From contig CAZHPN010000137.1 in the NCBI GenBank assembly GCA_964534375.1, positions 1 to 17,054 on the forward strand: a DNA stretch of 17,054 bases, read 5' to 3'. This document shows positions 327 through 17,054 of this stretch, piece by piece. How positions within the stretch are numbered: position 1 is the stretch's first letter; each line of letters starts with the position of its first letter. The translations under genes were made by a program, and so were the position numbers. The notes below the pieces were generated by a model. The model worked only from the letters and a program-made list of their open reading frames with translations. It was not told where the DNA came from and ran no database searches. This DNA is from an uncultured bacterium. Its GTDB lineage: Bacteria; Lernaellota; Lernaellaia; Lernaellales; Lernaellaceae.

Positions 327-330
327 CGCC

Positions 331-1413: not shown

Positions 1414-2203
1414 GGCGGCGGGGCTGCTGGCGAAGGCCGGTGTCGCGTCGTCGCTGATTGGCGACCCTGACATGGAATTCGGGGAGTTTCGGCCGTTCTG
1501 GCAAGGCGTGGCCGGCTGTGCGGTGTTTCTGTGGCGCGCGAGCGCGAGCTATCCGGCGATGGACGGGCCGGCGAGCGTGCCGTCGCTGCTGATTACAACG
1601 TCGGCGCTGGCGGCGCAATTTGTCGGCAAAATCCCGGCCATTATCACGGTCGCGGCGCCGCGCGCGGCGTTTGCGGTGGTTCAAACGGCGCTGCTCGGCA
1701 TCGGGGCGGCGCAGATCAGCCCCCTCGCCGTCGTCGAGCATTGCCTCGTCGGGCGCGACGTTCAGATTGAGCCGTTCTGCCATGTCGGCGGCGATGGCCT
1801 CAGCGCGAACCGAACCGGGAACCGCCAACTGCACACGCCCCACGGCGGCATCGTGCGCCTGGGCGACCGTGTGCGGCTTGAATCCATGACGGTAATCGAG
1901 CGCGCGGTGATGGGCGAAACCGTCGTCGGCGATGATTGCCAATTTGGCAACGGCAACAACGTCGGGCATGGCTCAGTGATCGGCAAGCGTCTCGCGTGCG
2001 CCGCCCGCGTCATCATCTGCGGACATTGTGAAATCGGCGACGACGTGCGGCTCGGGGCCGGCGTCGTGTTGCGGGAGGGTACGCGCGTCGGCGACCGGGC
2101 GTTTGTCGGCATGGGCGCGGTCGTGGTTCGTGACGTGCCGGCCGATGTGGTCGTGGCGGGGAATCCGGCGAGGATTTTGAAAGGGTCGGTTGCACCGTGG
2201 TAA
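1400..2203 (+). CDS. Hexapeptide-repeat (left-handed beta-helix) acyltransferase, diverged LpxD-like
   Basis: [IVL]G-xx-xx hexapeptide repeats. 'TVIERAVMGETVVGDDCQFGNGNNVGH' resembles the LpxD IDRG...DN.VQIAH region with the His retained. Ends in 'GMGAVVVRDVP...VAGNPARILK'. Overlaps the GT stop by 14 nt. Confidence 0.85.
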   Translation: MRAIEAAGLLAKAGVASSLIGDPDMEFGEFRPFWQGVAGCAVFLWRASASYPAMDGPASVPSLLITTSALAAQFVGKIPAIITVAAPRAAFAVVQTALLGIGAAQISPLAVVEHCLVGRDVQIEPFCHVGGDGLSANRTGNRQLHTPHGGIVRLGDRVRLESMTVIERAVMGETVVGDDCQFGNGNNVGHGSVIGKRLACAARVIICGHCEIGDDVRLGAGVVLREGTRVGDRAFVGMGAVVVRDVPADVVVAGNPARILKGSVAPW

Positions 2204-2799
2204 ATCTTGACGTGGGTTGCTCGCGGCTGCTGGCGATCGGCGCGCACGCCGACGATGTGGAATATGGCATCGGCGGCTGGTTGCAACGCTTTTCGTCGGC
2301 GCGGGTCGTCGTTGTCACCGATGGTCGGCCGGCGCGCGTGCGCGAGACTGAGGCCGCGGCGCGGATCTTAAACTACCAGCCCGCGATTCTCGACTACGCC
2401 GAGAACGACGTGAACCTTTCGCGGCTGGTCGTCGCCCTCGATGCGATCCTCGCCGGCGAGCGGCCCGACCTGATTGCGGTTCATTGGCCGAACGACACGC
2501 ACCAGGACCATCGGGCGGCGGCGGCGGCGACCCTGGCCGCGGCGCGCAACTTCGACGGCGCGATTGTGTTCTACCGCAGCCCGTCGTCGGCCGATTTTGC
2601 CCCCAATTTCCTCGTGGCGCTGACCGACGACGAATGGCGCGACAAGCTCGCGGCAATCCGCGCGCACGCTTCGCAGATGAGCAAACCGTTTTTGAGCGAC
2701 AAGGCGCTGCGCGCCGTCGCCCTGTCCTGGCCGGTCCTGTGGCATCAAGACGCAAAACTGTGCGAACCGTTCGCCCTTCACCGTTTGATCGTGGGGTAA
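2197..2799 (+). CDS. PIG-L/LmbE-family N-acetylglucosaminyl deacetylase
   Basis: Metal-binding motifs 'AIGAHADDVE' (H-x-D-D) and 'DTHQDH' (H-x-D-H), plus 'R..E..AA..L' and 'K..AI.AHASQ'. GTG start overlaps the upstream stop. Confidence 0.9.
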   Translation: MVNLDVGCSRLLAIGAHADDVEYGIGGWLQRFSSARVVVVTDGRPARVRETEAAARILNYQPAILDYAENDVNLSRLVVALDAILAGERPDLIAVHWPNDTHQDHRAAAAATLAAARNFDGAIVFYRSPSSADFAPNFLVALTDDEWRDKLAAIRAHASQMSKPFLSDKALRAVALSWPVLWHQDAKLCEPFALHRLIVG

Positions 2800-2802
2800 A
2801 AA

Positions 2803-3051
2803 ATGGCGGCAATCGTCGAACAGGACGGTCGCGGGTTGCGCGACGACCGCAGCGTTTCAGTAACGGAGTGCGCGCTGACCAGGGCGGCGTGCGTGGCGAC
2901 AATTCAGGGCAAGCTCGCGGTCGGCGAGGAAAAATTCGCCGAAGTAATGCGGCAACTCGCGTTCAACACCAAACTGCTTTATTTCTTCGGGGCCGGAATG
3001 CTCGGCCTGATCTCTCTTGTCATCGGCCTCTACGCCAAATTGCCGAAATGA
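2803..3051 (+). CDS. Small membrane protein with one C-terminal TM helix (holin/XhlA-like topology, unconfirmed)
   Basis: 82 aa with hydrophobic 'LLYFFGAGMLGLISLVIGLYA' followed by a basic tail. Fills the operon gap exactly (3 nt and 6 nt spacing). Confidence 0.6.
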   Translation: MAAIVEQDGRGLRDDRSVSVTECALTRAACVATIQGKLAVGEEKFAEVMRQLAFNTKLLYFFGAGMLGLISLVIGLYAKLPK

Positions 3052-3057
3052 CCGGCC

Positions 3058-3768
3058 ATGAAAGACAAAAACGCCAGTATCAACTATGCCATTTTCAAAA
3101 ACACCGAGGCCGAAATTCAGGCTCTTGCCCGCGCGAATCCGGTTACGCTCGTGGCATTTTCGGGCGGCAAAGACAGCTTGGTTCTGCTCGACCTCTGCTC
3201 GAAGGCGTTTCAAAAAGTCGTGTGTTTTTTCATGTATCTCGTGCCAAACCTCGCCGTCGCCGAAAAGCAGCTTGACTATGCACGCGACCGCTACGGCGTC
3301 GAAATTCTGCAATATCCGCATTGGGCGACCATCAAAAGCCTGAAAAATGGGGTCTATTGCAACGTTCATCCCTCGTGGGATGCAGTCAAAGAACAGACCG
3401 TCAACGACGTGCATGAATGGGTCAAGGCCGACACGGGCATCCCGATCATCGCGCACGGCGCCAAGAAAAGCGACAGCCTTTGGCGGCGGCGCTACATGGC
3501 CGCGCGGAAAAACAAGAAAGACGGCGCTTACTACCCCCTGGCCGACTGGAACAAATACGAAGTGCTGGCGTACCTGGGGCTGAACAACATCCCGCTGCCG
3601 GAAACGTCGAGCGGCGGCAAAAAGGCGGCGTCGGGCCTGGGCCTGATGACCGAATGCCTTTTGTGGCTGCACGACGAACACCCCGAAGATTTTGCAAAGG
3701 TGCTGACTTGGTATCCCTACGCCGAGGCGGTGGTGTACCGGAGAGATTGGTATGGAATCAAATACTGA
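3058..3768 (+). CDS. PAPS-reductase-like PP-loop (adenine nucleotide alpha-hydrolase) protein, mobile-element type
   Basis: PP-loop 'VAFSGGKDS', 'HGAKKSDSLWRR' and 'YPLADWNKYEVLAY'. Lacks the CysH C-terminal ECGLH and the CC...CxxC cluster motif. Confidence 0.85.
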   Translation: MKDKNASINYAIFKNTEAEIQALARANPVTLVAFSGGKDSLVLLDLCSKAFQKVVCFFMYLVPNLAVAEKQLDYARDRYGVEILQYPHWATIKSLKNGVYCNVHPSWDAVKEQTVNDVHEWVKADTGIPIIAHGAKKSDSLWRRRYMAARKNKKDGAYYPLADWNKYEVLAYLGLNNIPLPETSSGGKKAASGLGLMTECLLWLHDEHPEDFAKVLTWYPYAEAVVYRRDWYGIKY

Positions 3769-4646
3769 ATTGGGCGCGGCCGACGAGCAGACCGGCGAAC
3801 AAGGCGGCGAGAAGTCGGGGCGTAAGGGGGCGCAGGGAAAGGCCGGGATGCGTCGCGGCGCCGCAAGCGGCCGAACGAAGGCGCGGCCACGGCGCGGCAA
3901 GGGGCCGAAGGTTACACCGGGCGGGCTAAACCCGTTCGAGAAGTTTGAAGTCGTCGAAATTCACCGAAGTTTGATTAAGAACGCGCCCTATAACCCGCGT
4001 CAGATCACCGACGACGCCCGCGAGCGGTTGGGAAACAATATCGAAAAAGTGGGCCTGTTGACGCCGCTCGTTTGGAATGCGGAAACGGGCAACCTCGTTT
4101 TGGGGTCATCAGCGCCTTGAACGCCTCGACGCCAAGACCGGCACGCAGGATTACACCCTGCACGTCGCGCGGGTCCATCTCGATCCCGCGACCGAAAAAG
4201 CGCAGAACATTTTTTTCAACAATGCCAACGCGCAGGGCTATTTCGACATGGCCGCGCTCGAAACGATGTTCAAAGAGGAAAAAATCGACTTCGAGGCCGC
4301 GGGCTTCGACCTGGGGGAAGTCTATAAAGAGTTCGGCGAATCGCCGCTCGTGGAACAACCCGAACAGATGCTTGAGTTGTCGAAGCGAATCCGCGAGGCC
4401 GACGACCGCCAGAAACTAATCCGCGAAACCGTGAAAACGCGCGACGATGCCGATTTTTACCTCGTCGTCGTTTTCCCCGGCCACGATGAGCGCGAAAAGT
4501 TCACCGACGCGCTCGACCTCGACGACAACCGCTATATCGACGGCAAGAGTCTGCTCGCCAAATTGCTTGCGGCCCAGGCCGCGGCCGGCGCGATCTCGAC
4601 CACGACGGCGACCGCGACCGCGGCGGCGGCGGAAATGACAGTTTAG
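3752..4646 (+). pseudogene. ParB/Srx N-terminal-domain protein split by a single-base frameshift (sequencing error or true lesion)
   Basis: The first frame gives 'IKNAPYNPRQI...L..NIEKVGLLTPLVWNAETGNLV' and the +1 frame continues 'GHQRL...'. Deleting one base from TTTTGGGG (4098-4105) restores the ParB motif GNLVxGHQRL and a single ~297-aa ORF. Confidence 0.85.
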
Positions 4647-4706
4647 CAAGGCAGCGCCCCGGCCTTCGACGGGGGCGGCAAACGTTTGCGAAAGGATGAT
4701 GGAAAC

Positions 4707-4856
4707 ATGGCGAAACGCGGAACCGGCAAGCTCAAGGTCAGCGCCGCCGAAGCGAAATTCTTGGGCGGCGGCAAAGGCAAAAAGGGCGGCAAGGGCAAGA
4801 AACTCAGCGGCGCGATCAGCCCCGGCGCTCGCAACAGCCTCGGCGGCTGGTACTAA
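4707..4856 (+). CDS. Unannotated 49-aa Lys/Gly-rich basic peptide (MAKRGTGKLKVSAAEAKFLGGGKGKKGGKGKKLSGAISPGARNSLGGWY)
   Basis: Read manually because it is below the ORF-track cutoff. AAGGA RBS at 4692-4696, codons ending mostly in G/C like the rest of the operon, and stop codon immediately followed by hairpins and the terminator. Confidence 0.75.
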   Translation: MAKRGTGKLKVSAAEAKFLGGGKGKKGGKGKKLSGAISPGARNSLGGWY

Positions 4857-4891
4857 CCAGCACGGCCGTCTCACGACGGCCGGTTAAACGA

Positions 4892-4931
4892 AAAAGCCCC
4901 GGCGCGGCCGTAAGGCTGCGCCGGGGCTTTT
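4892..4931 (+). terminator. Intrinsic terminator, probably bidirectional, preceded by a second 8-bp hairpin at 4863-4882
   Basis: AAAAGCCCCGGCGCGGCC-GTAA-GGCTGCGCCGGGGCTTTT forms a long stem with a GNRA loop and A/T tracts on both sides. The upstream hairpin is CGGCCGTC-TCAC-GACGGCCG. Confidence 0.9.
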
Positions 4932-4958
4932 GCATTTGATTTCCGTTTATCTTACAAT
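4930..4958 (+). promoter_or_regulatory. Putative sigma70 promoter for the TM-HerA gene
   Basis: TTGCAT (4930-4935)-N17-TACAAT (4953-4958), about 75 nt upstream of ATG 5035. The -35 box overlaps the terminator T-tract. Confidence 0.6.
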
Positions 4959-5034
4959 CGCAACCTAGACGCGCTCTACACCTTGGATTTTTCAACAAAC
5001 AGGCTCAACAAGGCGAAGGGCAAAGGTCATCGAA

Positions 5035-7233
5035 ATGGACACCACGGCAACAACATTAAAACAGCGAACCCGTTTGCTGATCCTCATTCTTTATGTGGTC
5101 GGCTTGCTCATCACATCACGCCTCGCATTAGGTGCTTGGCTGCCACCAAGGTCGGAAAAAGGCGTTTGGTTCTATTCCGCATTGGCAGCTCTACTTCTCG
5201 GCAATCTCCTTGTAACGCCGTACTTCCGAAAGCCCACTAACTCGATTTCATACTCCGTTGCGGCTGCAATCGCGCTTCTAGCAGTGAATCCATGGGGCCG
5301 AACCAACTATATTGGATTTGACTGCTTTCTCTGGTCTTCGGCTATGGGGTATACGGGCGTCGTCTTTCTCGCCGGCATTTTCACGATAGCGCTAAAGGAT
5401 TCTCAACGTGTAATATGGCAAAAATTTGACAAGTCGTGTTTTCTCGTGAGTGACACACTTGGCAATCCACGGGCAATTTTTTCCGTGATTTTCCTCTTTG
5501 CCCTTGTCACATTCCACCGGAGTTCACCGCGCGAATATATTATCATCGGGTTTGCCTGGGCCGTGTTCGTTGGGCTACGCCCTCTCGAATCCATCGCTGG
5601 CCTTTTCCGCAGATTCAGCGCGGTATGGTCAACCGAGGAGGCCACGGCTCGCCTTGGCACCGTCGTTGGCCATGAAACTCCTGGGCTGGTCCTTATTCGG
5701 GAAGAGACTTCCTCAGCGGTGTCTTTTGGCGATCTCCTTTATGTCCGAAACGAGAGCGGCAAGCCGGGAATCGCTGTTGCCCTAGATCACGTCGGCTTTA
5801 CTGATGGTCGCTGGCTACGAGCGCAGCATCTATGCTCCGAAACCGAATCAGATCAATCTGCGCGAGGCCCATCTCTGGTTCGGGACGTTGCCGAAGGCAG
5901 CGTTTTTTTTGCCGACAAACGAAAGGTCTCCGCAGACACAAACTCGGCTGTGGACGATATTTGTAAGCGCCTCCTTGGGCTGGTTGCTCCGGATACGGCA
6001 GTCGGGACGCTACAAGTCGAGGTTGTCAGGGCCGATTTAGATTTGCAGTTGGGGAGCCTTATCCAAGTCAACATTGGCTCACGCACCGTTTTATACCAAA
6101 CCATCGAAGGGATCACCAAGGAGGAAATTCTCCATCAAAAGAACACACGAGGTTTCGTTCGAGCGGTGGCAAAAAAGATTGGATGCTGGAACAGCGCCAA
6201 CACAACATTCGAGAGTGTTCCGTGGCTGCCGCAGCCTAATGCGCCAGTTTTTCTGGCACCTCAGCAAACACCAACACCGAAAAGGGAAGCCATCGGCCAC
6301 TTTCCACAAACGGATTACACAGTAAGAATCGACCCGCAATTTCTGGTTACGCACAACGCCGCAATTCTTGGCATCCTTGGTGTAGGAAAGACATTCCTTG
6401 CGCTAGAACTGGTTGAGCGTATGGTTGATGCAGGGATAAAGGTGATCTGCTTGGACCTGACCGATCAATACTCGCAGCAGCTTGCTGCCTTCTATAAAAG
6501 CGATGCGGAAAGCGCGTTTATGACCGAATTGAATGGCATCGGACTGTCAGGTAAGACCAATTGTAACAAAAACGTTGAAGAAGGCGGCAGCGTGCGGCCG
6601 TTCGAGGCGAAGCTCAAAGAACATCTTACCGCGTTTCTTGGACCGGCGGGCACCGACAAACTATTAATATTCAACCCCGCTCGGTTTGAGGTGTGGCGAC
6701 AGGATAGCAAGCCGTTCCAAAACGTGGCGTCGATGGCGACACTGACGCCTACGGAAATAACACGTGTCATAACCGAAGTTGCGCTTGGCGTACTGCAAGC
6801 TCAGGGAATGACAGATCGAGCGAGGTGTTGCCTCGTCTATGAGGAGGCACATTCTCTGATCCCGGAATGGAATGCTGTCGCCGCCGAGGGTGACAAGGCC
6901 GCGACCAACGGTACTGCCAAAGCTATTCTACAAGGTCGGAAATTCGGACTTGGATGTTTGGTCATTACTCAGCGCACCGCAAATGTGACAAAAAGCATTC
7001 TTAACCAGTGCAACACAATATTTGCACTCCGCGTTTTCGACGCTACAGGGATGGAGTTTCTTAAGAATTACATAGGGAACGATTACGCCGGCGTCTTGTC
7101 GTCCCTAATGGATCGGCACGCAGTTATCTTTGGACGTGCATCATCTTGCAAAGACCCGGTACTGCTCCGCCTGAATGACCGTGACGAATTCTTGAAGATA
7201 TTTCGCAAACAGATCAGCGTCGAATCCGTGTAA
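5035..7233 (+). CDS. HerA/FtsK-superfamily (DUF87) ATPase with N-terminal multi-pass membrane region and probable HAS barrel
   Basis: About 6 hydrophobic segments in aa 10-185. Walker A 'HNAAILGILGVGKT', Walker B 'LVYEEAHSLIP', and the HerA motif 'ILQGRKFGLGCLVITQRTANVTKSILNQCNT'. 'P.PNAPVF' closes the HAS-like region. Visibly lower GC than the flanks. Confidence 0.9.
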   Translation: MDTTATTLKQRTRLLILILYVVGLLITSRLALGAWLPPRSEKGVWFYSALAALLLGNLLVTPYFRKPTNSISYSVAAAIALLAVNPWGRTNYIGFDCFLWSSAMGYTGVVFLAGIFTIALKDSQRVIWQKFDKSCFLVSDTLGNPRAIFSVIFLFALVTFHRSSPREYIIIGFAWAVFVGLRPLESIAGLFRRFSAVWSTEEATARLGTVVGHETPGLVLIREETSSAVSFGDLLYVRNESGKPGIAVALDHVGFTDGRWLRAQHLCSETESDQSARGPSLVRDVAEGSVFFADKRKVSADTNSAVDDICKRLLGLVAPDTAVGTLQVEVVRADLDLQLGSLIQVNIGSRTVLYQTIEGITKEEILHQKNTRGFVRAVAKKIGCWNSANTTFESVPWLPQPNAPVFLAPQQTPTPKREAIGHFPQTDYTVRIDPQFLVTHNAAILGILGVGKTFLALELVERMVDAGIKVICLDLTDQYSQQLAAFYKSDAESAFMTELNGIGLSGKTNCNKNVEEGGSVRPFEAKLKEHLTAFLGPAGTDKLLIFNPARFEVWRQDSKPFQNVASMATLTPTEITRVITEVALGVLQAQGMTDRARCCLVYEEAHSLIPEWNAVAAEGDKAATNGTAKAILQGRKFGLGCLVITQRTANVTKSILNQCNTIFALRVFDATGMEFLKNYIGNDYAGVLSSLMDRHAVIFGRASSCKDPVLLRLNDRDEFLKIFRKQISVESV

Positions 7234-7276
7234 AAACCGCCCGCGCCGCCCAAGAGGCGGAAGGGAAGCGCGGGCG
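7231..7276 (-). terminator. Possible terminator for leftward transcription (bulged hairpin)
   Basis: CGCCCGCGC/GCGCGGGCG outer stem with a CCGCC/GGCGG inner stem, followed on the minus strand by GTTTTTA. Confidence 0.35.
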
Positions 7277-7412
7277 AGCCGTCAATTTCGCAGCTTGCCG
7301 GAATGGCGAACGCGGAATAAAACGAGCCGGGTCGCAGCATGTTTAGAACCTCACTTGCAAGGGACGCTCTGCCGCAATAACGCCGAGTTGTTGTCCGAGT
7401 CCCTAAAGAAGA

Positions 7413-7441
7413 TTGCAACGGAATCTTTTGCGGCGTATAAG
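7413..7441 (+). promoter_or_regulatory. Putative sigma70 promoter for the AbiGi-family gene
   Basis: TTGCAA (7413-7418)-N17-TATAAG (7436-7441), with a GGAG RBS just before GTG 7504. Confidence 0.5.
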
Positions 7442-7503
7442 AAGTACGCCAAATGACGGAAACGGGGCAGCCGACGACTTAGCACGGAAACGGAGTCATC
7501 AAA

Positions 7504-8271
7504 GTGCAAAGATATGTGGCCAACGAGTTAATTCATTTTGTCGGCCGAGGAAAGCCTTCCGAGGTCGAACGGTACGAATTGCTGAAACATATATTAAATA
7601 CGGGCCAGCTAATATATCCGACATATGATCCAAACAATGAAAAGGTAACGATGAGGCTAAATCCTAATAAGCCTTACAAGGACCGGCTGGACGTGGATGG
7701 CATAAGCTTTTGTGACATTCCGATTAATGATCTCAACATTCACATGCAAAAATACGGGAGATTTGGCATTTCTTTTCGCAAAAGGTTTTTGCTTGAAAAA
7801 GGCGCAAATCCGGTATTCTACTATGCCGTTGATAAACTGGAATGCGGAGCGGGGCTGCGTTTCGGTAAATCTGGCATCTTTTTTACTGATATTATGGCGA
7901 TTGGACTGGAAATATTCAAGCATTATCGAGATGACACGACAACGTTTGACGCGCCAGAACACGATCTGCAAGGCACTAAAATTGGGAAGCACACTGGAAT
8001 GACATTTGAACAATGGTACGGTAATTTGATTTCGGAATTATTTGCTTTCATAAAACCTTTTATGGGCGATCTTGATGAAGGCGACGAGGAACAGTTTTAT
8101 ATGGAACGTGAGTGGAAAATCACCTATAGGGTTGTATTTTCTATGGCGGATGTATATAGAGTTATTTTACCGCAGGAATACGCCGAGAAATTCAACACTG
8201 ATTTCAGGGAAAAATATCTAGGCCAAATAACTTTCGCCGATGATTTGGGCGGCGGAAAAAGTCAACGGTGA
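7504..8271 (+). CDS. AbiGi-family protein (putative abortive infection, ADP-ribosyltransferase-like motifs)
   Basis: 'LIHFVG', 'IL.TG.L', 'ISFCDIP...L..HMQKYGRFGISF.K..L...GANPVFY' and 'FYMEREWK' match the AbiGi family pattern as I recall it. Markedly AT-rich relative to the flanks. Confidence 0.8.
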   Translation: MQRYVANELIHFVGRGKPSEVERYELLKHILNTGQLIYPTYDPNNEKVTMRLNPNKPYKDRLDVDGISFCDIPINDLNIHMQKYGRFGISFRKRFLLEKGANPVFYYAVDKLECGAGLRFGKSGIFFTDIMAIGLEIFKHYRDDTTTFDAPEHDLQGTKIGKHTGMTFEQWYGNLISELFAFIKPFMGDLDEGDEEQFYMEREWKITYRVVFSMADVYRVILPQEYAEKFNTDFREKYLGQITFADDLGGGKSQR

Positions 8272-8394
8272 ATTTTGGAAAGCCTGTCGCCGACGTAAAA
8301 AGCCTCCGAAAACATCGTGCCGATTCGCCAGCGGCAACCTAGCTGATGGCTACTTGACCAATCGCGCGAGGGCGGCGCGCGAAAGGCGCAGCAA

Positions 8395-8730
8395 TCACGT
8401 TCCTTTTTTGCCGCCCCGCTTCTGGGGCTTCGTTTGCGGGGCGTGGCGCGCAAACAGCGCCAACCCTTTTTTCGTCAACTGGTAGCCGCCCGCCCCGGCC
8501 TGTACGCTGGCCGGCAGCGCGGTAAAGCAATCGGGCCACGCAGACGGCCAAACTTGGCCGGTGCATGACCCGACGACGACTTCGCCATTTTCGCGGCGAA
8601 TCACGACGTCACAAGAGCCTTCCGCGCCGGCCGGCAGCACCGTTTTCCAAAGCTGGTCGGTCGGCACGCCGACGAGACGCCATCGCTCGATGCCTAGCTC
8701 GTCGTTCGCCGACAGCATGGTTGCGTTCAT
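8395..8730 (-). CDS. Hypothetical protein (111 aa)
   Basis: RBS GAAAAGAGGACAA-ATG of the type shared across the operon. Starts 16 nt after the DUF488 stop. Confidence 0.65.
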   Translation of the reverse strand: MNATMLSANDELGIERWRLVGVPTDQLWKTVLPAGAEGSCDVVIRRENGEVVVGSCTGQVWPSAWPDCFTALPASVQAGAGGYQLTKKGLALFARHAPQTKPQKRGGKKGT

Positions 8731-8746
8731 TTGTCCTCTTTTCCGG

Positions 8747-9232
8747 TTAGAACAAGTTTCCCTGACGCGGCCGGCGCGCGGGCTTCTCGACCTTCACTTT
8801 TTCCCCTCCCCCGACCCGCAAATGCTCGACAGTGACCGGGATTGTTATTTTCGTTCCCCATAGCTCGAACTCGACAGGCTCGCAGCCGGCCGCAATCCAT
8901 TCCGCGTAAAACTTCCGATGACAGGCGGCGGGGTCGCTCTCGGCGCACATCAAGACGATGTTGCCGCCGTCGAGAACATGCGCGCGGATTTCTTCGAGCG
9001 CGTCGATTACCTCGCCCTGGTCGGTCCACCCGAACCCGCCAAGCTGCGGGAAATGGGCGTAGCGCTCGCCGAGCAGATTTTCGAGATTGCGTTTGTTGCA
9101 ACTCGGATTATGCCTCGATCCCGGCCGCGAGCGAACGTCAACAAGCTCCCGGTCGCCAATCGCGGCGATCAGCTCGGCGGCGGGCGTCAGGCCGTGGCCG
9201 ATCGTGTAGATGGTAAAAGGCTTTCCATTCAT
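8747..9232 (-). CDS. DUF488 family protein (161 aa, start revised to ATG at 9232)
   Basis: 'IYTIGH', 'LVDVRSRPGSR', 'Y.H.PQLGG' and 'LMCAESDPAACHR' are DUF488 motifs. RBS GAAAGGA lies upstream of 9232. Confidence 0.85.
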   Translation of the reverse strand: MNGKPFTIYTIGHGLTPAAELIAAIGDRELVDVRSRPGSRHNPSCNKRNLENLLGERYAHFPQLGGFGWTDQGEVIDALEEIRAHVLDGGNIVLMCAESDPAACHRKFYAEWIAAGCEPVEFELWGTKITIPVTVEHLRVGGGEKVKVEKPARRPRQGNLF

Positions 9233-9258
9233 TTGTCCGTTCCTTTCTCGTATAGCTT

Positions 9259-9327
9259 GCCTCATCAGTGCGTCGGGAACCACCCAGGCGCAGACGGCGA
9301 CACGCTTGCGCGTGCCGTCGTTTCGGC
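9259..9327 (-). ncRNA. Hammerhead ribozyme, type II permutation
   Basis: Minus strand reads GCC-GAAA-CGACGGCACGC-GCAA-GCGUGUCGCCG-UC^UGCG-CCUGGGUGGUUCCCGA-CGCA-CUGAUGA-GGC. This gives the full core (CUGAUGA, GAAA, GUC triplet), stem II GCC/GGC, stem III with a GNRA loop and stem I UGCG/CGCA. Predicted cut between 9293 and 9292. Confidence 0.9.
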
Positions 9328-9357
9328 GGGAAAGGACGGGGGAACGTGGCGGGAGAG

Positions 9358-10377
9358 CTACATCTTGAGCGCGAAGATTTGCCGCTGATTTTCGGGTTTT
9401 TTCTCGCTGGCTTTGACGATCTTGAGCGCGGCGATCTCGCGGCCCATCGCCGCTAAGTCGCGTTCGTCTTGCTCGACACACTCGACCAATTCGGCATTTT
9501 TCGCGCGCAGATCACTGAGGCACGCCGCGACCAATTCAAAGCCCTTCGTCATTTCGGCCTGCAACCCGGCGACCATTGTTTCGACGGCCTTGCCATACTC
9601 GATGAGCTTTTGTTTGCAATGTTCGTCAACAGCGTCGAGCAGATCGTCGGCGGGAGTGCGCGCGGGGGCCGTCAAAAATTCCTTCACGGCCGCGGCGCTC
9701 ATGTCGTCCTCGATGGTCGCCGGCGCGGGCGCGGCCTTCGGCTTGAATTCATAAACGGTCGCGCCGGCCTCATTGTCGTCGTCGGTGGTCGGTTCGGTCG
9801 TCGTCATGGCGATCGGCGCCGCCTCGACAATCGCCGCCCGGTTGAGCGGCAAATTGCGCGGGTCGCTGATCGGCCAGGGCGTGCCGTCCGCGTCGAAACT
9901 GATTTTTTCCAGTTCACGAATCGCGGTCATCGCCAGATTCGACCATGTGCAACCGTCGTCGGATTTTGGGACCGTGATTTCGTGGGCCTCTTTCTTTCGG
10001 TCCCACAAGATCCCGTATTTCGCGGCGACGAACTCTTGAGCGGTCAACTCGTTTTCCGCGGTGAAAGACCGATGCACGTTGATAAAATCCGCGCCCATGA
10101 ACCGCTGTCCATCATACGGATAGGCTTCATAGTCCATCGAGTCGGTCATTCCGTCGAATGTCGTGCGGGTGAACGCATTCGTAACCTGTTCGACCAGCGC
10201 GCTCGCCGGCCCATCGGTGTAGCCGATGCTCACCGAGCAGCCGCCGCTATACTTGCTGGTCGTGACCGAAAATTTGCAGTCGGGGAAAAAATGCTTCAAC
10301 GCGAGCCGGATTTTTTTCGCGGTTTGCGTAGCATCCTCGAACGCCCATTCTTGCCGTCCTTTGTCCTGTTCGTTCAT
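9358..10377 (-). CDS. LPD29 (large polyvalent protein-associated domain 29) protein with C-terminal coiled coil (339 aa, start revised to 10377)
   Basis: 'TAKKIRLALKHFFPDCKFSV....YSGGCSVSIGYTDGP....V......F....FDGMTD' matches LPD29 as I recall it. RBS GAAAAGAGGC precedes ATG 10377. Confidence 0.8.
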   Translation of the reverse strand: MNEQDKGRQEWAFEDATQTAKKIRLALKHFFPDCKFSVTTSKYSGGCSVSIGYTDGPASALVEQVTNAFTRTTFDGMTDSMDYEAYPYDGQRFMGADFINVHRSFTAENELTAQEFVAAKYGILWDRKKEAHEITVPKSDDGCTWSNLAMTAIRELEKISFDADGTPWPISDPRNLPLNRAAIVEAAPIAMTTTEPTTDDDNEAGATVYEFKPKAAPAPATIEDDMSAAAVKEFLTAPARTPADDLLDAVDEHCKQKLIEYGKAVETMVAGLQAEMTKGFELVAACLSDLRAKNAELVECVEQDERDLAAMGREIAALKIVKASEKKPENQRQIFALKM

Positions 10378-10409
10378 CTCGTGCCTCTTTTCTTCGGGCA
10401 GTAATCGCC

Positions 10410-10447
10410 CGACCCAGGCCCGCGCCGCGGGACGTGAGCTAGGGTCG
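10410..10447 (-). repeat. Intergenic hairpin motif, copy C (diverged, covarying)
   Basis: CGACCC-UAG-CUCACGU-CCCGCG-GCGCGGG-CCU-GGGUCG, followed by the CGGGC/GCCCG hairpin and the RBS. Confidence 0.7.
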
Positions 10448-10451
10448 TCGA

Positions 10452-10871
10452 TCACACGACGAACCGTTTTTTTTCGACCATGCGAAGGGTGATTTTCTGT
10501 TGCGGCTTGCCGGCCGGCGTTTCAACGTGGCTGTCGATGACCCACGCAAGATTGTCCCAATAAACGCCGCCGATTTCTTCGACCAGCTTCGCGGGGTGCA
10601 GGTGGTATGGCCGCCGCGCCGGCTTGACCAGTTGGACGGTATAGGTGTCGTCGGCCGCCAAAAAAACGGTGACGTAGCCCTTGAACAACCGGCCGGTCAC
10701 TTTGAAACGCAGACCGCCACGCATCAGCACGCCGTCGCGCTTTTCCTCGGGCATTGCCGCGAATTCGTGCGCGCCCCAGGAACCCAGGGTCGCATTGCCG
10801 CCGACCGCGAGAATTTGCTGCTTAATCGTGTTGGCGATCTCGACCGCTCGTTGCGCCTGTTCGTTATCCAT
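10452..10871 (-). CDS. Hypothetical phage-type protein (139 aa, start revised to 10871)
   Basis: RBS AAAAAGAGGCGAAA-ATG. 'IANTIKQQI...WGA...GLRFKV....KGYVTVFL..DDTYTV...GVYWDNL...ID' resembles a widespread uncharacterised phage family. Confidence 0.75.
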   Translation of the reverse strand: MDNEQAQRAVEIANTIKQQILAVGGNATLGSWGAHEFAAMPEEKRDGVLMRGGLRFKVTGRLFKGYVTVFLAADDTYTVQLVKPARRPYHLHPAKLVEEIGGVYWDNLAWVIDSHVETPAGKPQQKITLRMVEKKRFVV

Positions 10872-10907
10872 TTTCGCCTCTTTTTGTTGGAGCATTGGAG
10901 TAATGCC

Positions 10908-10941
10908 CGCCAGGAACGCGCCGCGGGGCGTGTTCTAGGCG
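10908..10941 (-). repeat. Intergenic hairpin motif, copy B
   Basis: CGCC-UAG-AACACGC-CCCGCG-GCGCGUU-CCU-GGCG. Shares the flanks CGCGTAGTGCGCGCCTAGA and CCTGGCGGGCAT with copy A. Confidence 0.8.
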
Positions 10942-10945
10942 CGCA

Positions 10946-11323
10946 CTACGCGCTCTCGACCGGCGACGCCTCGACTTTTTCCTCGTGCAACGACGCCGCG
11001 CACTCGCTCATCACATGGGCGAACCGCTGCTCGGCGGTAAGGCCGCTCAGGTCAAGCGGCTTCTCGCCGAACACCGGCCGCGGGGCTTTCGGCTGTTCGG
11101 GTTCGCCAAACATGCTCGCGGTTTTTTCTTCGGTGTCGGTGTCGGGGCGTGCATCGGGCGGGACGACGGCGGCGAGCCGCGCAACGTCCACGTCGAAAAG
11201 CGGGCGCGCTTTCTGGCCGAAAATGTCGGCCTGTCGCGCATCGGTTTTCCTCGATCTCGCGCCGACGACAACGGCCTCGTCGCCCGCGAATAGGTCGCGC
11301 CGGGTTGTCACTGTTCTTTTCAT
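10946..11323 (-). CDS. Hypothetical, probably disordered protein (125 aa) with repeated hydrophobic-Phe motifs
   Basis: RBS AAGAGGCGAAA-ATG. The stop sits directly before motif copy B. Confidence 0.7.
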   Translation of the reverse strand: MKRTVTTRRDLFAGDEAVVVGARSRKTDARQADIFGQKARPLFDVDVARLAAVVPPDARPDTDTEEKTASMFGEPEQPKAPRPVFGEKPLDLSGLTAEQRFAHVMSECAASLHEEKVEASPVESA

Positions 11324-11342
11324 TTTCGCCTCTTGTCCTGTT

Positions 11343-11409
11343 TTGAGCGGTCAAAATCGACGCTCAAGAAAAGGCCCGAAGCACCGCGCTTCGGGCCTGA
11401 TCTTGAACG
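11343..11409 (-). terminator. Terminator-like hairpin with alternative pairings (possible attenuator or processing site)
   Basis: AGGCCCGAAGC-GCGGU-GCUUCGGGCCU-UUUCUU. The outer arms CGUUCAAGA/UCUUGAGCG extend the stem, and UUGAGCG can instead pair with downstream CGCUCAA. Confidence 0.65.
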
Positions 11410-11422
11410 GGCGGCGAGCCGC

Positions 11423-12109
11423 CTAAAACGGCACTTCGTCGTCGGTCCCTGTGCTTTGGCCGGAGTCTTGCTCTTGCGGTTGCTCTGGTGCTTGCTCTTG
11501 GCGCGCTTTTTCGCTTTCCTCGTAGTTGGCCAATTCAAGCGCAAGCTGTTCCCGCGACTCCATTTCGGCAATTCGCTCCGGTGCTCGCAAAAACGGAAGG
11601 TAATGCGTAAGGCACCCGTGAATCTCACCAAGGGCCAAACCGCCGTTAATTCGCTGGTGTTGCTCAAGGCAAATTTTCATCGCAATGAGCAATTTTTGGT
11701 CAAACGGAAGCGCGCCGATTTCCTCGCTGCTCACGTCGTAACCGTTTTCGCCGCCGACCTCGCGCAACACGTCGTTGACGGTGTTGTGCGCTTCGACGGT
11801 TTCACAATGTTCGCCCGCCGGGTCGCCGCCGTGGTAGTTTTCCCGAAAATACAGTTCGACGAACAGCATGAAGTCCCACGACCGGACTATTATCATCGGA
11901 TGGTACTCAAGATAATCAAATCCGTTGAAGTAATAGCCGTGGAACCGCGGCCCCTTTTTGCGAGGATAATAACCGGCCTCCAAGTCAGGCACGAACGCCG
12001 GTTTCTCTTTTTTCGCTTTTTTCGGTTTGCTTTCTTCGACCGGCTTTTCCTTCGGTTTCGCCTTTTGGCTGGCAACCTTGCCGGCCTTTTTGTCCTGTTC
12101 TGTGTTCAT
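11423..12109 (-). CDS. Hypothetical protein (228 aa) with Lys-rich N-terminus and SSB-like acidic tail (DDEVPF)
   Basis: RBS GAGGCAAAA-ATG. Bounded by motif copy A and the 11343-11409 hairpin. Confidence 0.75.
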   Translation of the reverse strand: MNTEQDKKAGKVASQKAKPKEKPVEESKPKKAKKEKPAFVPDLEAGYYPRKKGPRFHGYYFNGFDYLEYHPMIIVRSWDFMLFVELYFRENYHGGDPAGEHCETVEAHNTVNDVLREVGGENGYDVSSEEIGALPFDQKLLIAMKICLEQHQRINGGLALGEIHGCLTHYLPFLRAPERIAEMESREQLALELANYEESEKARQEQAPEQPQEQDSGQSTGTDDEVPF

Positions 12110-12137
12110 TTTTGCCTCGCTTTTCGGGCGATATGCC

Positions 12138-12169
12138 CGCCAGGACCGCGCTTTTGCGTGGTCTAGGCG
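12138..12169 (-). repeat. Intergenic hairpin motif, copy A
   Basis: CGCC-UAG-ACCACGC-AAAA-GCGCGGU-CCU-GGCG, followed by the CGGGC-AUAUC-GCCCG hairpin and the RBS. Confidence 0.8.
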
Positions 12170-12173
12170 CGCA

Positions 12174-12488
12174 CTACGCGCCGGCGCTTTCGCTTTTGGG
12201 TTCGTTGAGGGAGTATTGGGGCCAATCGGCCGGGGTGCTCAAATCGCCATGAATCCACGGCTTGTTACAACCGCATTCGCTAATTTCGCAGTATTCCGCG
12301 CCCTGATTTTGCCGAAGCTCGACGCTTTGCGTTTGGCGCAGTTCGGTCGCTTGCCGGCGCGACAACTCGTAAACATTTATCGCCACATCGACCGCATCGC
12401 GTCGGCTTTCTAATGCTTGGCAAAAGTCAGGCAAACAGCCGTGCGAACCGCCCATAATAATCCAGTGTGTTTTCGCCGCCTTGTTCAT
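12174..12488 (-). CDS. Hypothetical protein (104 aa), Cys/His-containing, first gene of the leftward operon
   Basis: RBS AAAAGAGGCGAAAA-ATG. Contains 'HGCLPD' and 'CEISECGC..PWIH'. Confidence 0.75.
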   Translation of the reverse strand: MNKAAKTHWIIMGGSHGCLPDFCQALESRRDAVDVAINVYELSRRQATELRQTQSVELRQNQGAEYCEISECGCNKPWIHGDLSTPADWPQYSLNEPKSESAGA

Positions 12489-12814
12489 TTTTCGCCTCTT
12501 TTGTTAGGATTTTGGCCTAAAACGCACGGAAACCATGCGTTTTAGGCCGGAATCCCGAATGGAATCCGGTCTAGGCAGAAAATGAACAGGACATTACCGA
12601 GAATCCAAAATTTCTCGGTCGCCCGCGCGTACACGGTTTCTTCGCTCTGCTGCTGAACAGCAGGCTAACGCCAAGTCGTCGCGGGTTAAGTTATTCTATT
12701 GTCAATGGGGACGGGGCGTTAACATGCTCTTGCGCGGGTGGCCTTTTTTCCTCACTGGTTAAGAATCCTATGTTCGGCCTTGCCCCTTTCGCATCCTACG
12801 GGGCAACACGCGCG

Positions 12815-13073
12815 AAGTGTTGAAAATCTCAACACTTCTTTTAAGGCTGACATTAACAACGCCCTGGCTTGTCATCTTGCTATGGACTCCCCAGGACTTG
12901 AGCAAGCCTTAAGGGTCTTGCCCTCGCCTTACTGCTTGGAAAAGAACTAACTGAACATGCGTATTATAACGTAGCTGTTAGATAATGCAAGCATTATTTT
13001 CGGTTTTTTCGTTACATTTTGTAACGTTTGTCGTTAAAGAATAGCGGCCTAAGTGTTTAGTTTTACAACACTT
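12815..13073. promoter_or_regulatory. Pair of palindromic sites AAGTGTT-N9-AACACTT (12815-12837 and 13051-13073) bracketing the promoter
   Basis: Identical 7-bp arms and identical 9-nt spacing with different spacer sequences. Confidence 0.55.
12963..12990 (-). promoter_or_regulatory. Sigma70-type promoter for the leftward operon
   Basis: Minus strand TTGCAT (12990-12985)-N16-TATAAT (12968-12963) with an A-rich upstream tract. The palindrome ATAATGC-AA-GCATTAT (12982-12997) overlaps the -35 box. Confidence 0.7.
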
Positions 13074-13076
13074 TAT

Positions 13077-13188
13077 GCGCTACCAGGGCGACCAGGGCGC
13101 TACCAGGACGGCAGGGCGCTACCAGGACGGGGCAGGGCGCTACCAGGACGGCAGGGCGCTACCAGGACGGCAGGGCGCCACCAGGACG
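13077..13188. repeat. Tandem array of about 6 copies of a 19-bp unit GCGCTACCAGGACGGCAGG
   Basis: Units start at 13077 (degenerate), 13097, 13116 (+GG), 13137, 13156 and 13175 (partial), with no spacers. Confidence 0.95.
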
Positions 13189-13329
13189 AGCAATTTACAT
13201 TACTACCCACTAAACCTAGCCGCCTCTTTCGGCAAGGTTAGTGCTGCGCCGTCTCCGGCCGCCGCAACCTTCGCGGCTTGCTCGACAAGTTTACTCAGGT
13301 GTGATTTTATCATTGGCATCGGGCATTGT

Positions 13330-16300
13330 TCACCATGACGCGGCCTTTTCAATTATTTCAATTTCACCGGTCGTCAGGCCATAAATTCTATATACGTGCT
13401 TGTCAATAGTCGCTTGCAGTTTCCACGACTCCTGCGCCCTTTCCGCACTAGCGGCACATTCGATTACACGTCTCACTAGACCAGCAATCTCCTCCTCATC
13501 ATTTTTAGAACAAACCGGCACGGAGAATGATTCAAGGTACTTCGTCTGGAAGTAGTAATAGCTGTTGTTATACGGGTTGCTAGTGTTTTTGATGAAGTAC
13601 CAGAGAACCTTGCTGTTTAGCACTCCGAGCAAAAACTCCTCCCCGATACGAGATGCACAGCCAACGAGGGAGTAACCCCCGGCATCCGGGTACCAACCCT
13701 GGTCGTCTAAGGTGAAGTGCGGCATATTCTGTAACTGAGGCGTAATAAGTTTCCTGCCATCAAACAGTCGTTTGTCCCGCGATCTATGCAGCGAAAACCA
13801 GCATTTGGGATTTGTCTTGTACTTGACCTTTTTTTCAATCAAATGCTTCTTAAAGGGCTTGAAGTAAGCGTAGGCCAATGGGAAGGCGGCCTTCATCTCT
13901 GCCTCTGTGTACGGCACCGTTTTTCCACGTTTGTCCAGGTGATGCGGATAGATGATGACTATGTCGCTCGTCAGCTTGCCGTAGCGTCTAATGTGCTCCC
14001 CTTTTACAAGCGGCTTCACAAGGCTTGCCTCGACCTCGACCTCGGCATTTGCAGCGGCCGAATAACCTACGTAGGTCTTACCTTTCCGTTCACCGCGCAA
14101 GACGAAGATATCGTCCCCGACGGTGACGATCCCTTGATAGATTCCCTTAACGATATCTGTTAAGGGCCGCGCCTGAGATTTTAGCTTCACGACGAGATCG
14201 GTGGACCCGGCGGTCTCGGTAGCCAATATCCAATGCCGACCGTCCTCCTCATACTTACGCTCGGCGAATTTTACCGCCCCAAAATCCTTCGTCGTTACGT
14301 ACTTGAATTGAAAGCAGCTGTTGTTGCGGCTGTAAAAGAATATTCCAGTGTAGGTAGTGGCCGTCTCAAAGACCTGCTCGACGCCGAATAGAACGGCTTT
14401 TTTTAATCCGCCACTCTTGTCCAAGAAGACTTTTAGGCCTCGTCCATAACCTGCTGTGAGAAACCGATGTGGATGAATCAGGCAGACGGTTCCGTTCTTA
14501 TTCATCTGGGCAAACGCAGCCTCAACGAACAACACATAAATATCGAACTTCCCTGACGCCGCCACGTACCTGGGTTTCAGGTATTGCACATACTTTGGTT
14601 CGATATTTTGAATTCTAATGTACGGCGGGTTTCCCATAAGAACGTCAAAACCATCCTTTTCACGAAAGACCTCCGAAAAGAAAAGCCGGTAATCGAAATC
14701 GACACGATGTCCGAGGGACTTCTCCGAGTGGGCTAGGATATTCTCGATGCGTCGATCAATCAGCTGTTTAAGCTTTGCCTTTCGTTCGTGGTCAGAATCG
14801 TCGAAATATTTCTCTTTGAGCGTCTCGATATCCGCTAACCCCTGTGACTGGAACGGAAAGCCCAAGAGCGAGTCGCCCGTGACGATTTTAAAATCGAGGT
14901 TCGGCAACGGTTTGATCTGCTGCACGTCTTCCTCGTCCACGACGAGCGAGAGCCAAAGCCGTAACTTGGCGATTTCGACGGCGCCAGCATCAATATCCAC
15001 ACCGTAAAGCGAGTTCTGAATCGCATGACGCTTAAAGTGGTAAGGTGTTCGTTCTGACAAACCGCTGAAATACGGATTCAACGCGGTGCGCGCACGGACA
15101 ATCTCGGTCATCATGCCGACCGGGAAGGCGCCGGAACCAATGGCGGGATCACATACCGTGATGTTCTTGAGCGCGTCGTCGAGATCGCCGGCGTATTTTT
15201 CAACGGCTGCGGGGAGTCGGCGAATGTAGCTCGCCGTGCCGTCCTTACGGGCGGTTTCATAGTGCGCAGCCTGCTCGCCTTCGAGGATGAGGGCTTCGAC
15301 TTCAACCCGCTGAATGATTCGGCCGTTCTTGTTGAGTGTGGTGTCAAGGTAGTTGATGAGGCTCTCCTGACACATATAGTGGACGATCTCGCGCGGCGTG
15401 TAGAAGGCGCCAAGTCCCTTGCGCCGGTTTTCTTCGATCAGCTTCTCGAAAACCTTGCCGAGCATTTCGGGGTCGATGGCCACGTCTTTTTCGAGAGGTT
15501 CGGCCTCGTTGACCGTGAAATTATAGCGGTCGAATACATCGAGGATGCCGGCGCCGACATCGCCGGCTGGTGACGGGTACTTGTTCGTAAAGAGCGTATT
15601 GGGCAGGTTGATCGCCGTTTTCTTCCAATCGTATCCGGCGAGCGGTTCAAACAGGCCGCCGTTGAGGAATGGTATGCGGCATTGGAAGGTCTGGCACCAA
15701 GCATCGTGGCCGCGATCCGTGGCGAGGGTGTCATAGAAAAGCGGTTCGAGGGTATCGCTGAAAAAGCACTTTTTTTCGCGCGTGGCGCGGTCGGCTAATA
15801 GACGAAGGAAATTGCGCGGGCCTTCCCCCCATTTGCCGCCCTTGGCGACGCCGAGCCAGCCCTTTTTCTGGATGAAGTAGAGGAAGACGATCTGACCGAG
15901 AAGCTTCTTGGTAAAGTCCACGGTGCTGACGCCCTTGGCCTTGAAATCGGCCCGGAGGACGGCGTTCTTCTTTACCAAAGCCTCCAAGGCGTCAAGCGCG
16001 GTTGCGAAGAGACGAGCGTATTCATTAAAAAACTCCTTCGTTACCGATTCAACGCTGAAAGCCTCCTCGATTTGGGCGAGCACCGGAACGTCGGATGTAT
16101 TTTGAAGGAGCGCGAGAAAGCGAGATTGCGCCGTATGACATTTCTCGTCGGCGCCGACCAGGTAAGAGTATCGTCGCGCCGGGGTCAATCGCTCCTCGGG
16201 CTTGATCTTGCCGGTTTTCGGATCTCGCTTCGTTTCGTATTCCATGCGGACGTATGAAAAACGCCAGGATTGCGAATCGGGCGCCACAAAGGCGACGAGG

Positions 16301-16620: not shown

Positions 16621-16632
16621 AGGGCAGTTCCT

Positions 16633-17052
16633 TTACGGAAGGTAGGATGAGAGGATGACTTCGCTGGGGGCGGCCGGCGCATCCTTTTCGGGTCTGGCGA
16701 CCCGGCCGACAAGGTACTGGCTGGCGACATCCCTGCGGAGAATGCGGACCATCCCGACCGGATCGTCGGTCGTGTCGAACGCCTCCTTGACCTTCCGAAT
16801 GGTATGCTTGCCGACTCGTCCATCGGCAATGATCTTTTCGACAGCAGCGGCGAATTTTCGATCCTCAGAATTGAGCGCATCGGATTGGCGAAAATTCCTC
16901 GCGCGCAGCCGTTTCAGGATGATCGCTTCGTTGCCGCTGCCGATGGCGGTTGCAGACAGCACCGTTTCAAGGCCGGGCGTCGTGGCGGATCGGAAGCCTT
17001 GCTTGTTCTTGTCCAGAAGCGGGTAGAACTTTTCGGGCGGGATTTCCTGCCG
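16633..17052 (-). CDS. Partial CDS (C-terminus), probably the large helicase-type partner of the methyltransferase
   Basis: The frame is open to the window edge (RQEIPPEKFYPLLDKNKQGF...EVILSSYLP) and ends 12 nt before the MTase ATG. The tail resembles helicases found upstream of such MTases, but no helicase motif lies inside the window. Confidence 0.5.
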   Translation of the reverse strand, partial: RQEIPPEKFYPLLDKNKQGFRSATTPGLETVLSATAIGSGNEAIILKRLRARNFRQSDALNSEDRKFAAAVEKIIADGRVGKHTIRKVKEAFDTTDDPVGMVRILRRDVASQYLVGRVARPEKDAPAAPSEVILSSYLP

Positions 17053-17054
17053 TT

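Follow-up and report, generated by a model that had tools for sequence, protein, structure and literature searches.

Can a self-cleaving RNA that lies between two bacterial genes decide when the second of them is translated? The question is raised by contig CAZHPN010000137.1 of an uncultured wetland bacterium of the phylum Lernaellota, a 17,054-nucleotide (nt) stretch of which (positions 1 to 17,054) was analysed (hereafter the window). On its minus strand, in the intercistronic region between two co-directional genes that encode an LPD29-domain protein and a DUF488 protein, lies a type II hammerhead. Judged by its sequence, the site is almost certainly a genuine ribozyme of this type, with cleavage predicted upstream of the DUF488 gene. 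Moreover, the pyrimidine-rich spacer that precedes it can pair with the Shine-Dalgarno (SD) sequence of DUF488, and folding models point to a hairpin in which ribozyme and SD would be closed together. That self-cleavage frees this masked SD, with DUF488 translation following the cut, is on these models a plausible reading, if one that falls just short of probable.

The hammerhead and its family

A complete hammerhead core, transcribed from the minus strand in the gap between LPD29 and DUF488, had been described in the earlier note, and all of the note's coordinates were correct (Table 1). The predicted cut was likewise placed correctly, with a new 5′ end at 9292 and hence a 60-nt leader before the DUF488 AUG at 9232. 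CUGAUGA, GAAA and a UH dinucleotide are present in the type II order and all invariant core bases are intact. Type II hammerheads are defined by capped stems I and III, a stem II that can be as short as two pairs, and a pseudoknot of at least four pairs between loop I and the bases following stem II (PMC3088659; the papers cited here were available in part, and statements about them refer to those parts). In the window, stems I and III are loop-capped and stem II is open according to the Rfam alignment, the minimum free energy (MFE) fold and a descriptor search, and the UGGUU/AGCUA pseudoknot comprises 5 pairs, two of which are G.U.

Table 1. Coordinates of the ribozyme, the outer helix and the surrounding features in the window. 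Elements of the ribozyme region are given 5′ to 3′ on the minus strand. ORF, open reading frame; bp, base pairs; aa, amino acids.
Feature	Position	Strand	Remarks
LPD29-domain gene (upstream)	9358-10455	-	Longest ORF, start GTG 10455; Pfam PF18847 LPD29, E 4e-21
LPD29 stop UAG	9360-9358	-	Start and stop codons checked
Spacer, LPD29 stop to stem II	9357-9328	-	30 nt; C18 U8 G3 A1; 26/30 pyrimidines
Anti-SD strand of outer helix, CCGUCCUUUC	9339-9330	-	Pairs with 9247-9237
Type II hammerhead, stem II 5′ strand to stem II 3′ strand	9327-9259	-	Rfam match spans 9328-9251
Stem II, 5′ strand GCC	9327-9325	-	C11.1 = 9325; pairs with GGC 9261-9259; 3 bp, open
Core GAAA (G12 A13 A14 A15.1)	9324-9321	-	From Rfam alignment and coordinates
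Stem III	9321-9294	-	12 pairs including A15.1-U16.1; GNRA-type loop GCAA 9309-9306
U16.1 and C17	9294 and 9293	-	UH cleavage dinucleotide
Predicted cut, after C17	9293/9292	-	Rfam alignment position; 5′-OH end predicted at U9292
Stem I	9292-9269	-	4 bp, internal loop CC/A, 4 bp; loop UGGUU 9282-9278
Core CUGAUGA (C3-A9)	9268-9262	-	Intact
Stem II, 3′ strand GGC	9261-9259	-	Pairs with GCC 9327-9325
Tail A-AGCUA-UACGA	9258-9248	-	Sequence read
Pseudoknot strand AGCUA	9257-9253	-	Pairs with loop I UGGUU: U-A, G.U, G-C, U.G, U-A
SD strand of outer helix, GAAAGGAACGG	9247-9237	-	GAAAGGA = DUF488 Shine-Dalgarno
DUF488 AUG	9232-9230	-	Coordinates checked
DUF488 gene (downstream)	8747-9232	-	161 aa; Pfam PF04343, E 3.9e-14
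PAPS-reductase/BrxP-like protein	3058-3768	+	Defence-island type neighbour
Two overlapping ORFs	3752-4120, 4077-4646	+	Match phrog_9353 (ParB-like) positions 6-62 and 62-236
HerA-type ATPase	5035-7233	+	Defence-island type neighbour
AbiGi	7504-8271	+	Defence-island type neighbour
Terminator-like hairpin, strong	11372-11398	-	12 pairs, 8 G-C, then U-rich tail; consensus scan
Type IIG restriction-modification enzyme	13330-16620	-	1096 aa; PADLOC E 3.4e-229

The site scored 29.4 bits against the Rfam model RF02276 (Hammerhead_II), with E values of 2.4e-4 in a search of 221 nt, 0.019 for the window against all 4227 families, and 1.6e-3 for this one family against the 6.3-Mb genome. Comparison with the Rfam hammerhead models had been put forward in the earlier note as a check, and its outcome was divided: the match was obtained at the genome-wide E value just given, but it lies under the gathering score of 37 and a default search returns no match. 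This shortfall is not disqualifying, because low scores also occur within the family. When 20 viral or metagenome loci, each carrying a well-formed ribozyme of type II, were rescanned, 5 of the 18 type II matches scored between 27.9 and 35.9 bits, and at E ≤ 0.1 a type II match was missing from 4 of the 20 loci.

Seven weaker matches to RF02276 are present in the same genome, the runner-up at 20.8 bits and none above it, and none of the seven passes a hammerhead descriptor in which the core is combined with two stems closed as hairpins and with a stem II of 3 bp. This descriptor was written after the site was known and was relaxed post hoc to allow one mismatch in stem III, a stricter version having missed the site through its A/C mismatch. 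In the relaxed form it matched the window site alone among the 643 CTGATGA sites of the genome, and had no match in 10 locally shuffled genomes. No RF02276 match at E ≤ 0.01 was found in any of 14 control genomes. Hammerheads of type I or III were found neither in the 17 genomes of the phylum nor in the genome to which the window belongs. Intercistronic hammerheads of phages and prophages often lie in clusters (PMC3088659); the window ribozyme is present as a single copy in both contig and genome.

A 23-base signature (CGAAAC...GUCUGC...GCACUGAUGAG) is matched by the window at 9325-9261 and by at least 124 viral loci. A loop-specific pattern taken from loop I of the window retrieved 36 metagenome stretches and 2 genome stretches. 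Together with L096, a locus from the first viral scan, these yielded 26 distinct type II ribozymes besides that of the window. Read by eye, the sequences of these 26 relatives share a stem II of 3 bp that covaries, and their tails are AACCA or AGCCA (rarely AACCU or AACCG), starting 0 or 1 base past stem II. The tail of the window, AGCUA, starts one base past stem II, in the same register as in the relatives, and is a single C-to-U step away from AGCCA. The UGGUU loop was also found with a similarly interrupted stem I in L096, L138 and L141, and the upper part of stem I differs between the window and L141 by an A-U to G-C exchange. Both this exchange and the covariation of stem II come from non-orthologous ribozymes that have the same loop. 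The ribozyme is a new member of a well-known family.

The position of the site was compared with a survey of 119 distinct ribozymes (118 viral and that of the window), the viral ones being among the matches listed. A start codon lies within 70 nt downstream in 110 of the 119 (median 24.5 nt; window 28 nt), and an upstream ORF ends within 70 nt in 106. The median distance from this stop to CGAAAC is 2 nt; the 32 nt of the window is among the five longest. With three further viral scans the set grew to 249 distinct ribozymes; both a defined stop and a start preceded by an SD are present in 196 of them. In 163 of these 196 family members (83%) the stop codon lies no more than 7 nt from stem II, compared with a spacer of 30 nt in the window. 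The composition of the spacer is also unusual: a 30-mer offset by 2 nt contains 25 pyrimidines, a number reached by only 0.2% of the 30-nt windows of the contig.

The close packing in the phage members is an observation in its own right. Their stop codon, 0-7 nt from stem II, often falls inside stem II itself, and the next start codon lies about 25 nt past the core. Because of this spacing, a ribosome finishing the upstream phage gene would sit on stem II. No statement of such a rule was found in the literature examined, as far as the available parts of those papers extend.

Predicted pairing of the spacer with the DUF488 Shine-Dalgarno sequence

It had been claimed further in the earlier note that the 5′ flank at 9339-9330 is complementary, apart from one bulged A, to 9247-9237, and that it could extend stem II over the SD of DUF488. 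The complementarity was borne out: CCGUCCUUUC and GAAAGGAACGG can form a helix of 10 pairs and -12.0 kcal/mol in which one A is bulged. The extension of stem II also held in the folding model, where the probability (P) that the SD pairs with the spacer was 0.905 with the hammerhead helices enforced. The enforced structure has an energy of -46.8 kcal/mol against -47.5 for the MFE fold, a gap of 0.7, and this outer helix is present in both the MFE and the centroid folds. As modelled, the outer helix is compatible with the ribozyme fold. Proceeding outwards, stem II is followed by an internal loop (2 nt on one side and 11 nt on the other, the latter including the pseudoknot strand) and then by the outer helix over the SD. 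The MFE fold adds an outermost helix of 5 bp, in which 9346-9342 pairs with 9230-9226.

GAAAGGA is, on sequence grounds, a credible SD for the host organism. Among the 5-mers that precede long ORFs, AAGGA shows the strongest enrichment (10-fold), and GAAAGGA itself is found upstream of 54 of 5589 ORF starts compared with 5 at a control position. The assembly contains no 16S gene from which the anti-SD could be read, and the SD type was therefore deduced from this k-mer enrichment.

Cleavage is predicted to alter the state of the SD. The precursor model gives P = 0.82 for pairing between SD and 5′ flank and leaves the SD unpaired at 0.18, a value that rises to 0.92 in the model of the 3′ product. 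The resulting gain in accessibility is the second largest among 106 family members, for which the median modelled change is 0.017.

The site was first chosen for its complementarity, and the p-values of the window itself are thus discovery values and not tests. With this in mind, the observed P was reached by 1.25% of shuffles of the 57-nt flank (n = 400) and by none of 105 foreign flanks taken from other loci. In comparison with 600 SD-bearing ORFs of the same genome, the unpaired probability of the SD (0.073) is in the lowest 3.2% and its long-range upstream pairing (0.927) in the top 1.3%. The duplex between the two flanks has a z-score of -2.08 and ranks third of 119. For the duplex between the spacer and the SD region the energy is -14.5 kcal/mol, and comparison with random segments gave p = 0.046 and 0.033. 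How far the anti-SD/SD pairing exceeds chance varies with the null chosen, and the excess is modest (p from 0.0125 to 0.13).

In the 17 phylum genomes searched, RF02276 has only one other match at E ≤ 0.01, which lies in a related genus (G004:C95:2760-2831, equivalent to L175:1501-1572, minus strand; 35.6 bits, E = 3.2e-5). This is a well-formed type II hammerhead whose stems I and III differ from those of the window, and the gene downstream of it encodes a DEAD/DEAH-domain protein. No protein or DNA similarity is shared between the two loci. The spacer of the second locus, which is 13 nt long and follows the upstream stop, contains GUCCUUCC, complementary to GGAAAGGAC, the SD region of the downstream gene. 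The energy of this duplex is -14.6 kcal/mol; shuffled spacers as the null give p = 0.0185, and genomic segments give 0.0255. Moreover, the layout is that of the window: beyond stem II comes an internal loop that carries the pseudoknot strand on its 3′ side, and beyond this an outer helix covers the SD. Spacer and SD pair at P = 0.83 when the hammerhead is imposed on the model, in a structure of -51.0 kcal/mol compared with a free minimum of -53.1. The second locus would replicate the architecture of the window at an unrelated site; as a single modelled replicate with p of about 0.02, it is no more than suggestive.

Pairing between spacer and SD was also considered as a general trait of type II hammerheads, and was rejected as such. 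The SD paired with the 5′ flank at P > 0.5 in 14 of 106 ribozymes, compared with 10-15 when flanks were swapped and 13-18 when they were shuffled; at P > 0.7 there were 9, compared with 2-8 in the controls. Pairing was not correlated with spacer length (Spearman 0.12, p = 0.26). Of the 31 viral ribozymes whose spacer measures 8 nt or more, none reached p < 0.05 against pooled segments, and 2 did so against shuffles. The spacer/SD duplex of the window ranks first of 32 long-spacer ribozymes. A separate observation concerns a viral contig (L034) with a 65-nt spacer, in which an SD-complementary hexamer directly follows the stop codon and is paired in the model with the next SD (P = 0.83); a duplex test of its spacer alone was not significant.

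Readings of the locus and known systems

A hammerhead cut after C17 leaves a 2′,3′-cyclic phosphate and a 5′-OH. In the reading that we favour, a bicistronic LPD29-DUF488 mRNA would be cut by the hammerhead after C9293. The open, 3-bp stem II would be continued, across the internal loop with the pseudoknot strand, by the 10-bp helix whose strands are the pyrimidine-rich spacer and the DUF488 SD, and in the uncut RNA the ribozyme would lie within a hairpin that closes the SD. The cut would make of this hairpin a two-piece duplex, able to dissociate or be degraded. The stem III hairpin would terminate its 5′ piece; the 3′ product, with a 5′-OH and the stem I hairpin at its start 60 nt upstream of the AUG, would have a free SD. 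Translation of DUF488 would then follow self-cleavage rather than transcription alone. We infer cleavage, masking of the SD and its release after the cut as the events in vivo. A wider proposal, that the chromosomal type II hammerheads of this sparsely sampled phylum sit in SD-closed hairpins and that irreversible self-cleavage licenses the translation of defence-island genes as a one-shot gate or delay, is put forward tentatively, and we regard it as rather doubtful. That an SD can be freed by cleavage is physically plausible because, in engineered Escherichia coli constructs with the SD in a ribozyme stem, expression with an active ribozyme exceeded that with an inactive ribozyme by a factor of 5 to about 100 (PMC5052635).

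A number of results weigh against a cleavage-freed SD. Against shuffled spacers, the spacer/SD duplex of the window has p = 0.12-0.13, and 58-60% of shuffled flanks still pair with the SD at P > 0.5; because of the latter, the pyrimidine-rich composition of the spacer appears to do most of the work, rather than its exact order. In a crude genome-wide test of duplex energy, 80% of 9051 ORFs in this GC-rich genome have an upstream duplex that is equal or stronger. The 136-nt region as a whole folds no better than its shuffles (z = -0.20), 83 of 200 of which fold as well. At the second locus of the phylum, the unconstrained P is only 0.18-0.34, a value reached by 27% of shuffles, and in the model of its 3′ product the SD stays paired, now with coding sequence. 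Searches for a diverged copy of the window locus returned only identical copies, which offer no covariation for the outer helix. The duplex of 10 + 3 bp could persist after cleavage, and the outer helix may only hold the weak stem II and the pseudoknot together. In the main rival reading the ribozyme is real and acts only as a constitutive intercistronic cutter, or 'insulator', of the sort present in phages by the hundred, which separates the cistrons while hairpins protect both new ends; the spacer/SD complementarity would then be incidental, or would only help to close the weak stem II, with no regulatory effect. The influence of spacer composition and the unremarkable duplex energy agree with such a role, as do the phage relatives, which are intergenic and do not pair flank with SD above controls, and the small median change in SD accessibility across the family. 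Transcript processing is, in addition, a role suggested in reviews (PMC6765202; PMC3088659). Constitutive cutting could quite possibly be the whole function, although we would not call it probable. It leaves unexplained the 30-nt pyrimidine-rich spacer (family median 2 nt; composition in the top 0.2%), the long-range SD pairing in the top 1.3%, and the like layout of the one further hammerhead found in the phylum. Moreover, however it arose, a helix of -12 kcal/mol that covers the SD should reduce initiation.

Two further explanations dispense with a cleavage-linked release of the SD. In one, translation is coupled: the anti-SD strand would be melted, and the DUF488 SD thereby opened, by ribosomes that reach the end of LPD29, with the ribozyme as a passenger or in a later role in mRNA decay. 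At the second locus the gap between the stop codon and the anti-SD strand downstream of it is 2 nt, such that a terminating ribosome would cover the strand, and the outermost helix of the window MFE fold (9346-9342 with 9230-9226) is nearer to the stop. However, the window stop is 18 nt from the anti-SD strand, which is more than the stretch usually taken as covered by a terminating ribosome, and opening of the helix by ribosomes at the LPD29 stop is a weak proposal for the window. Coupling also gives no reason for a complete ribozyme core within the hairpin, and we consider it highly improbable. In the other, the site is inactive, a chance match or a decayed copy with no effect linked to cleavage. 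The score under the Rfam gathering cut-off is as this would predict, and a per-family E value of about 4e-6 per window corresponds, over a scan of about 250,000 windows, to approximately one chance match at this score. Stem III has an A/C mismatch (9318/9297), and the pseudoknot is weaker than in any of the 26 same-loop relatives, none of which has a wobble pair at the position of the C-to-U step. In addition, 4 of 18 consensus hammerheads failed to cleave in vitro (PMC3088659). Set against this, all invariant core bases are intact, the descriptor found nothing in 10 shuffled genomes, and the family is matched in the loop, in the register of the tail, in a stem II of 3 bp and in a GNRA-capped stem III, as well as in the strand and the intergenic position. 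The differences from the relatives keep pairing, both in stem I (A-U to G-C) and in the pseudoknot, where the C-to-U step gives G.U. An inactive site is quite improbable. The release of a masked SD by the hammerhead is the reading retained in what follows.

Thousands of bacterial and phage hammerheads are known; their purpose has been called undefined, and effects on processing, stability and translation have been suggested (PMC6765202). The window resembles the type II ribozymes of RF02276 (PMC3088659) in its core, its capped stems I and III, its short open stem II and the pseudoknot between loop I and tail, and also in its co-directional intergenic site about 25 nt before the next start. It differs from them in its score below the cut-off, a long stem III, two wobble pairs in the pseudoknot, and a 30-nt pyrimidine-rich spacer where 83% have 7 nt or less. 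In contrast to the phage type II relatives, whose pairing is not above chance, the spacer of the window pairs with the next SD in the models, and the host locus is a bacterial island of defence type, not recognisable as phage.

The closest parallels in arrangement are engineered. In SD-masking platforms built from hammerhead and twister ribozymes for E. coli (PMC5052635), as in the window, the SD strand forms part of the helix that closes the ribozyme. Release of the SD by self-cleavage was measured in these constructs, whereas at the window it is predicted by the model. The platforms are designed 5′ untranslated regions with the SD inside a stem of the ribozyme proper; the window is natural and intercistronic, with the SD in an outer helix past the internal loop, and unlike the platforms it has no evident ligand-sensing part. 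The hammerhead HHphage of the haloviruses HF1 and HF2 also lies close to a start codon, 13 nt upstream of it (PMC3088659). A transcript 5′ end was mapped near its cleavage site and control of the gene was speculated on by the authors (PMC3088659). HHphage has a variant core and belongs to an archaeal virus, and an SD-pairing flank is not described in the available part of the Discussion. The glmS ribozyme (PMC6765202) is also a bacterial self-cleaving leader RNA whose cut alters downstream expression. It has an unrelated fold and is activated by a metabolite, and its cleavage lowers expression through exposure to RNase, whereas the window has no evident ligand and the proposed effect is raised translation. 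A more distant analogue is offered by ribozymes that aid translation in eukaryotic RNA viruses, reported in 2026 (PMC13725137). No natural hammerhead that masks an SD was found in the literature, a search that most subscription journals lay outside; the parts of papers that were available hold only engineered designs and general suggestions.

The locus is small and clean, with one ribozyme, one SD and one 10-bp helix joining them. If cleavage does free the SD, it would be a natural counterpart of the engineered SD-masking ribozymes and would provide a concrete function for a bacterial hammerhead. If not, it would be an ordinary intercistronic hammerhead, found outside phages and in a defence-type island.

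Neighbouring genes and strain variation

The proteins on either side of the ribozyme are near-orphans. For LPD29, no close homologue was found, the best matches other than itself having 31-51% identity over 18-32% of the protein. DUF488 has one distant homologue (34% identity), and none in the 17 genomes of the class. In a collection of gene calls the LPD29 protein is represented by a 339-aa call that is 100% identical and would start at AUG 10377, and the DUF488 protein by an identical call of 161 aa. The DUF488 protein also gave weak PADLOC matches to the candidate defence families PDC-M45B, PDC-M19A and PDC-M45C.

The reading frame of DUF488 is open upstream across the ribozyme and the spacer, as far as GTG 9481 (8747-9481, minus strand), and at the second locus of the phylum (L175) the frame of the downstream gene is likewise open across its ribozyme. 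These open frames are probably an effect of GC content. Automatic gene callers could extend DUF488, or the downstream gene at the second locus, over the ribozyme.

No promoter-like or terminator-like site was found between LPD29 and DUF488 by consensus scans, the only type of scan applied. The strong terminator-like hairpin listed in Table 1 lies between the ORFs 11423-12109 and 10946-11323. This suggests that the transcription unit carrying LPD29, the ribozyme and DUF488 starts downstream of that hairpin.

A DNA search of 60 relatives gave only two short matches, both in flanking coding sequence, and the plasmid and phage collections contained no DNA match to the locus. Among the 36 metagenome and 2 genome stretches retrieved with the loop pattern, only L145 is the same locus, and it is identical. 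Contigs from four wetland-metagenome DNA runs span the ribozyme without any difference; a search for RNA runs that carry the locus returned none. Outside the ribozyme region, where none was seen, only two variants occur in the 1.7 kb compared: C>T at 9173, inside DUF488, in contigs of 3 of the 4 runs, and G>A at 10119 in 1 of the 4.

Matches of the window neighbours to PHROG families are weak only, and the locus is not recognisable as phage. With the restriction-modification enzyme and the other defence-type neighbours in Table 1, the surroundings look like a defence or mobile island. The two overlapping ORFs that match successive parts of the ParB-like family look like a single gene that either a frameshift or an assembly error has divided.

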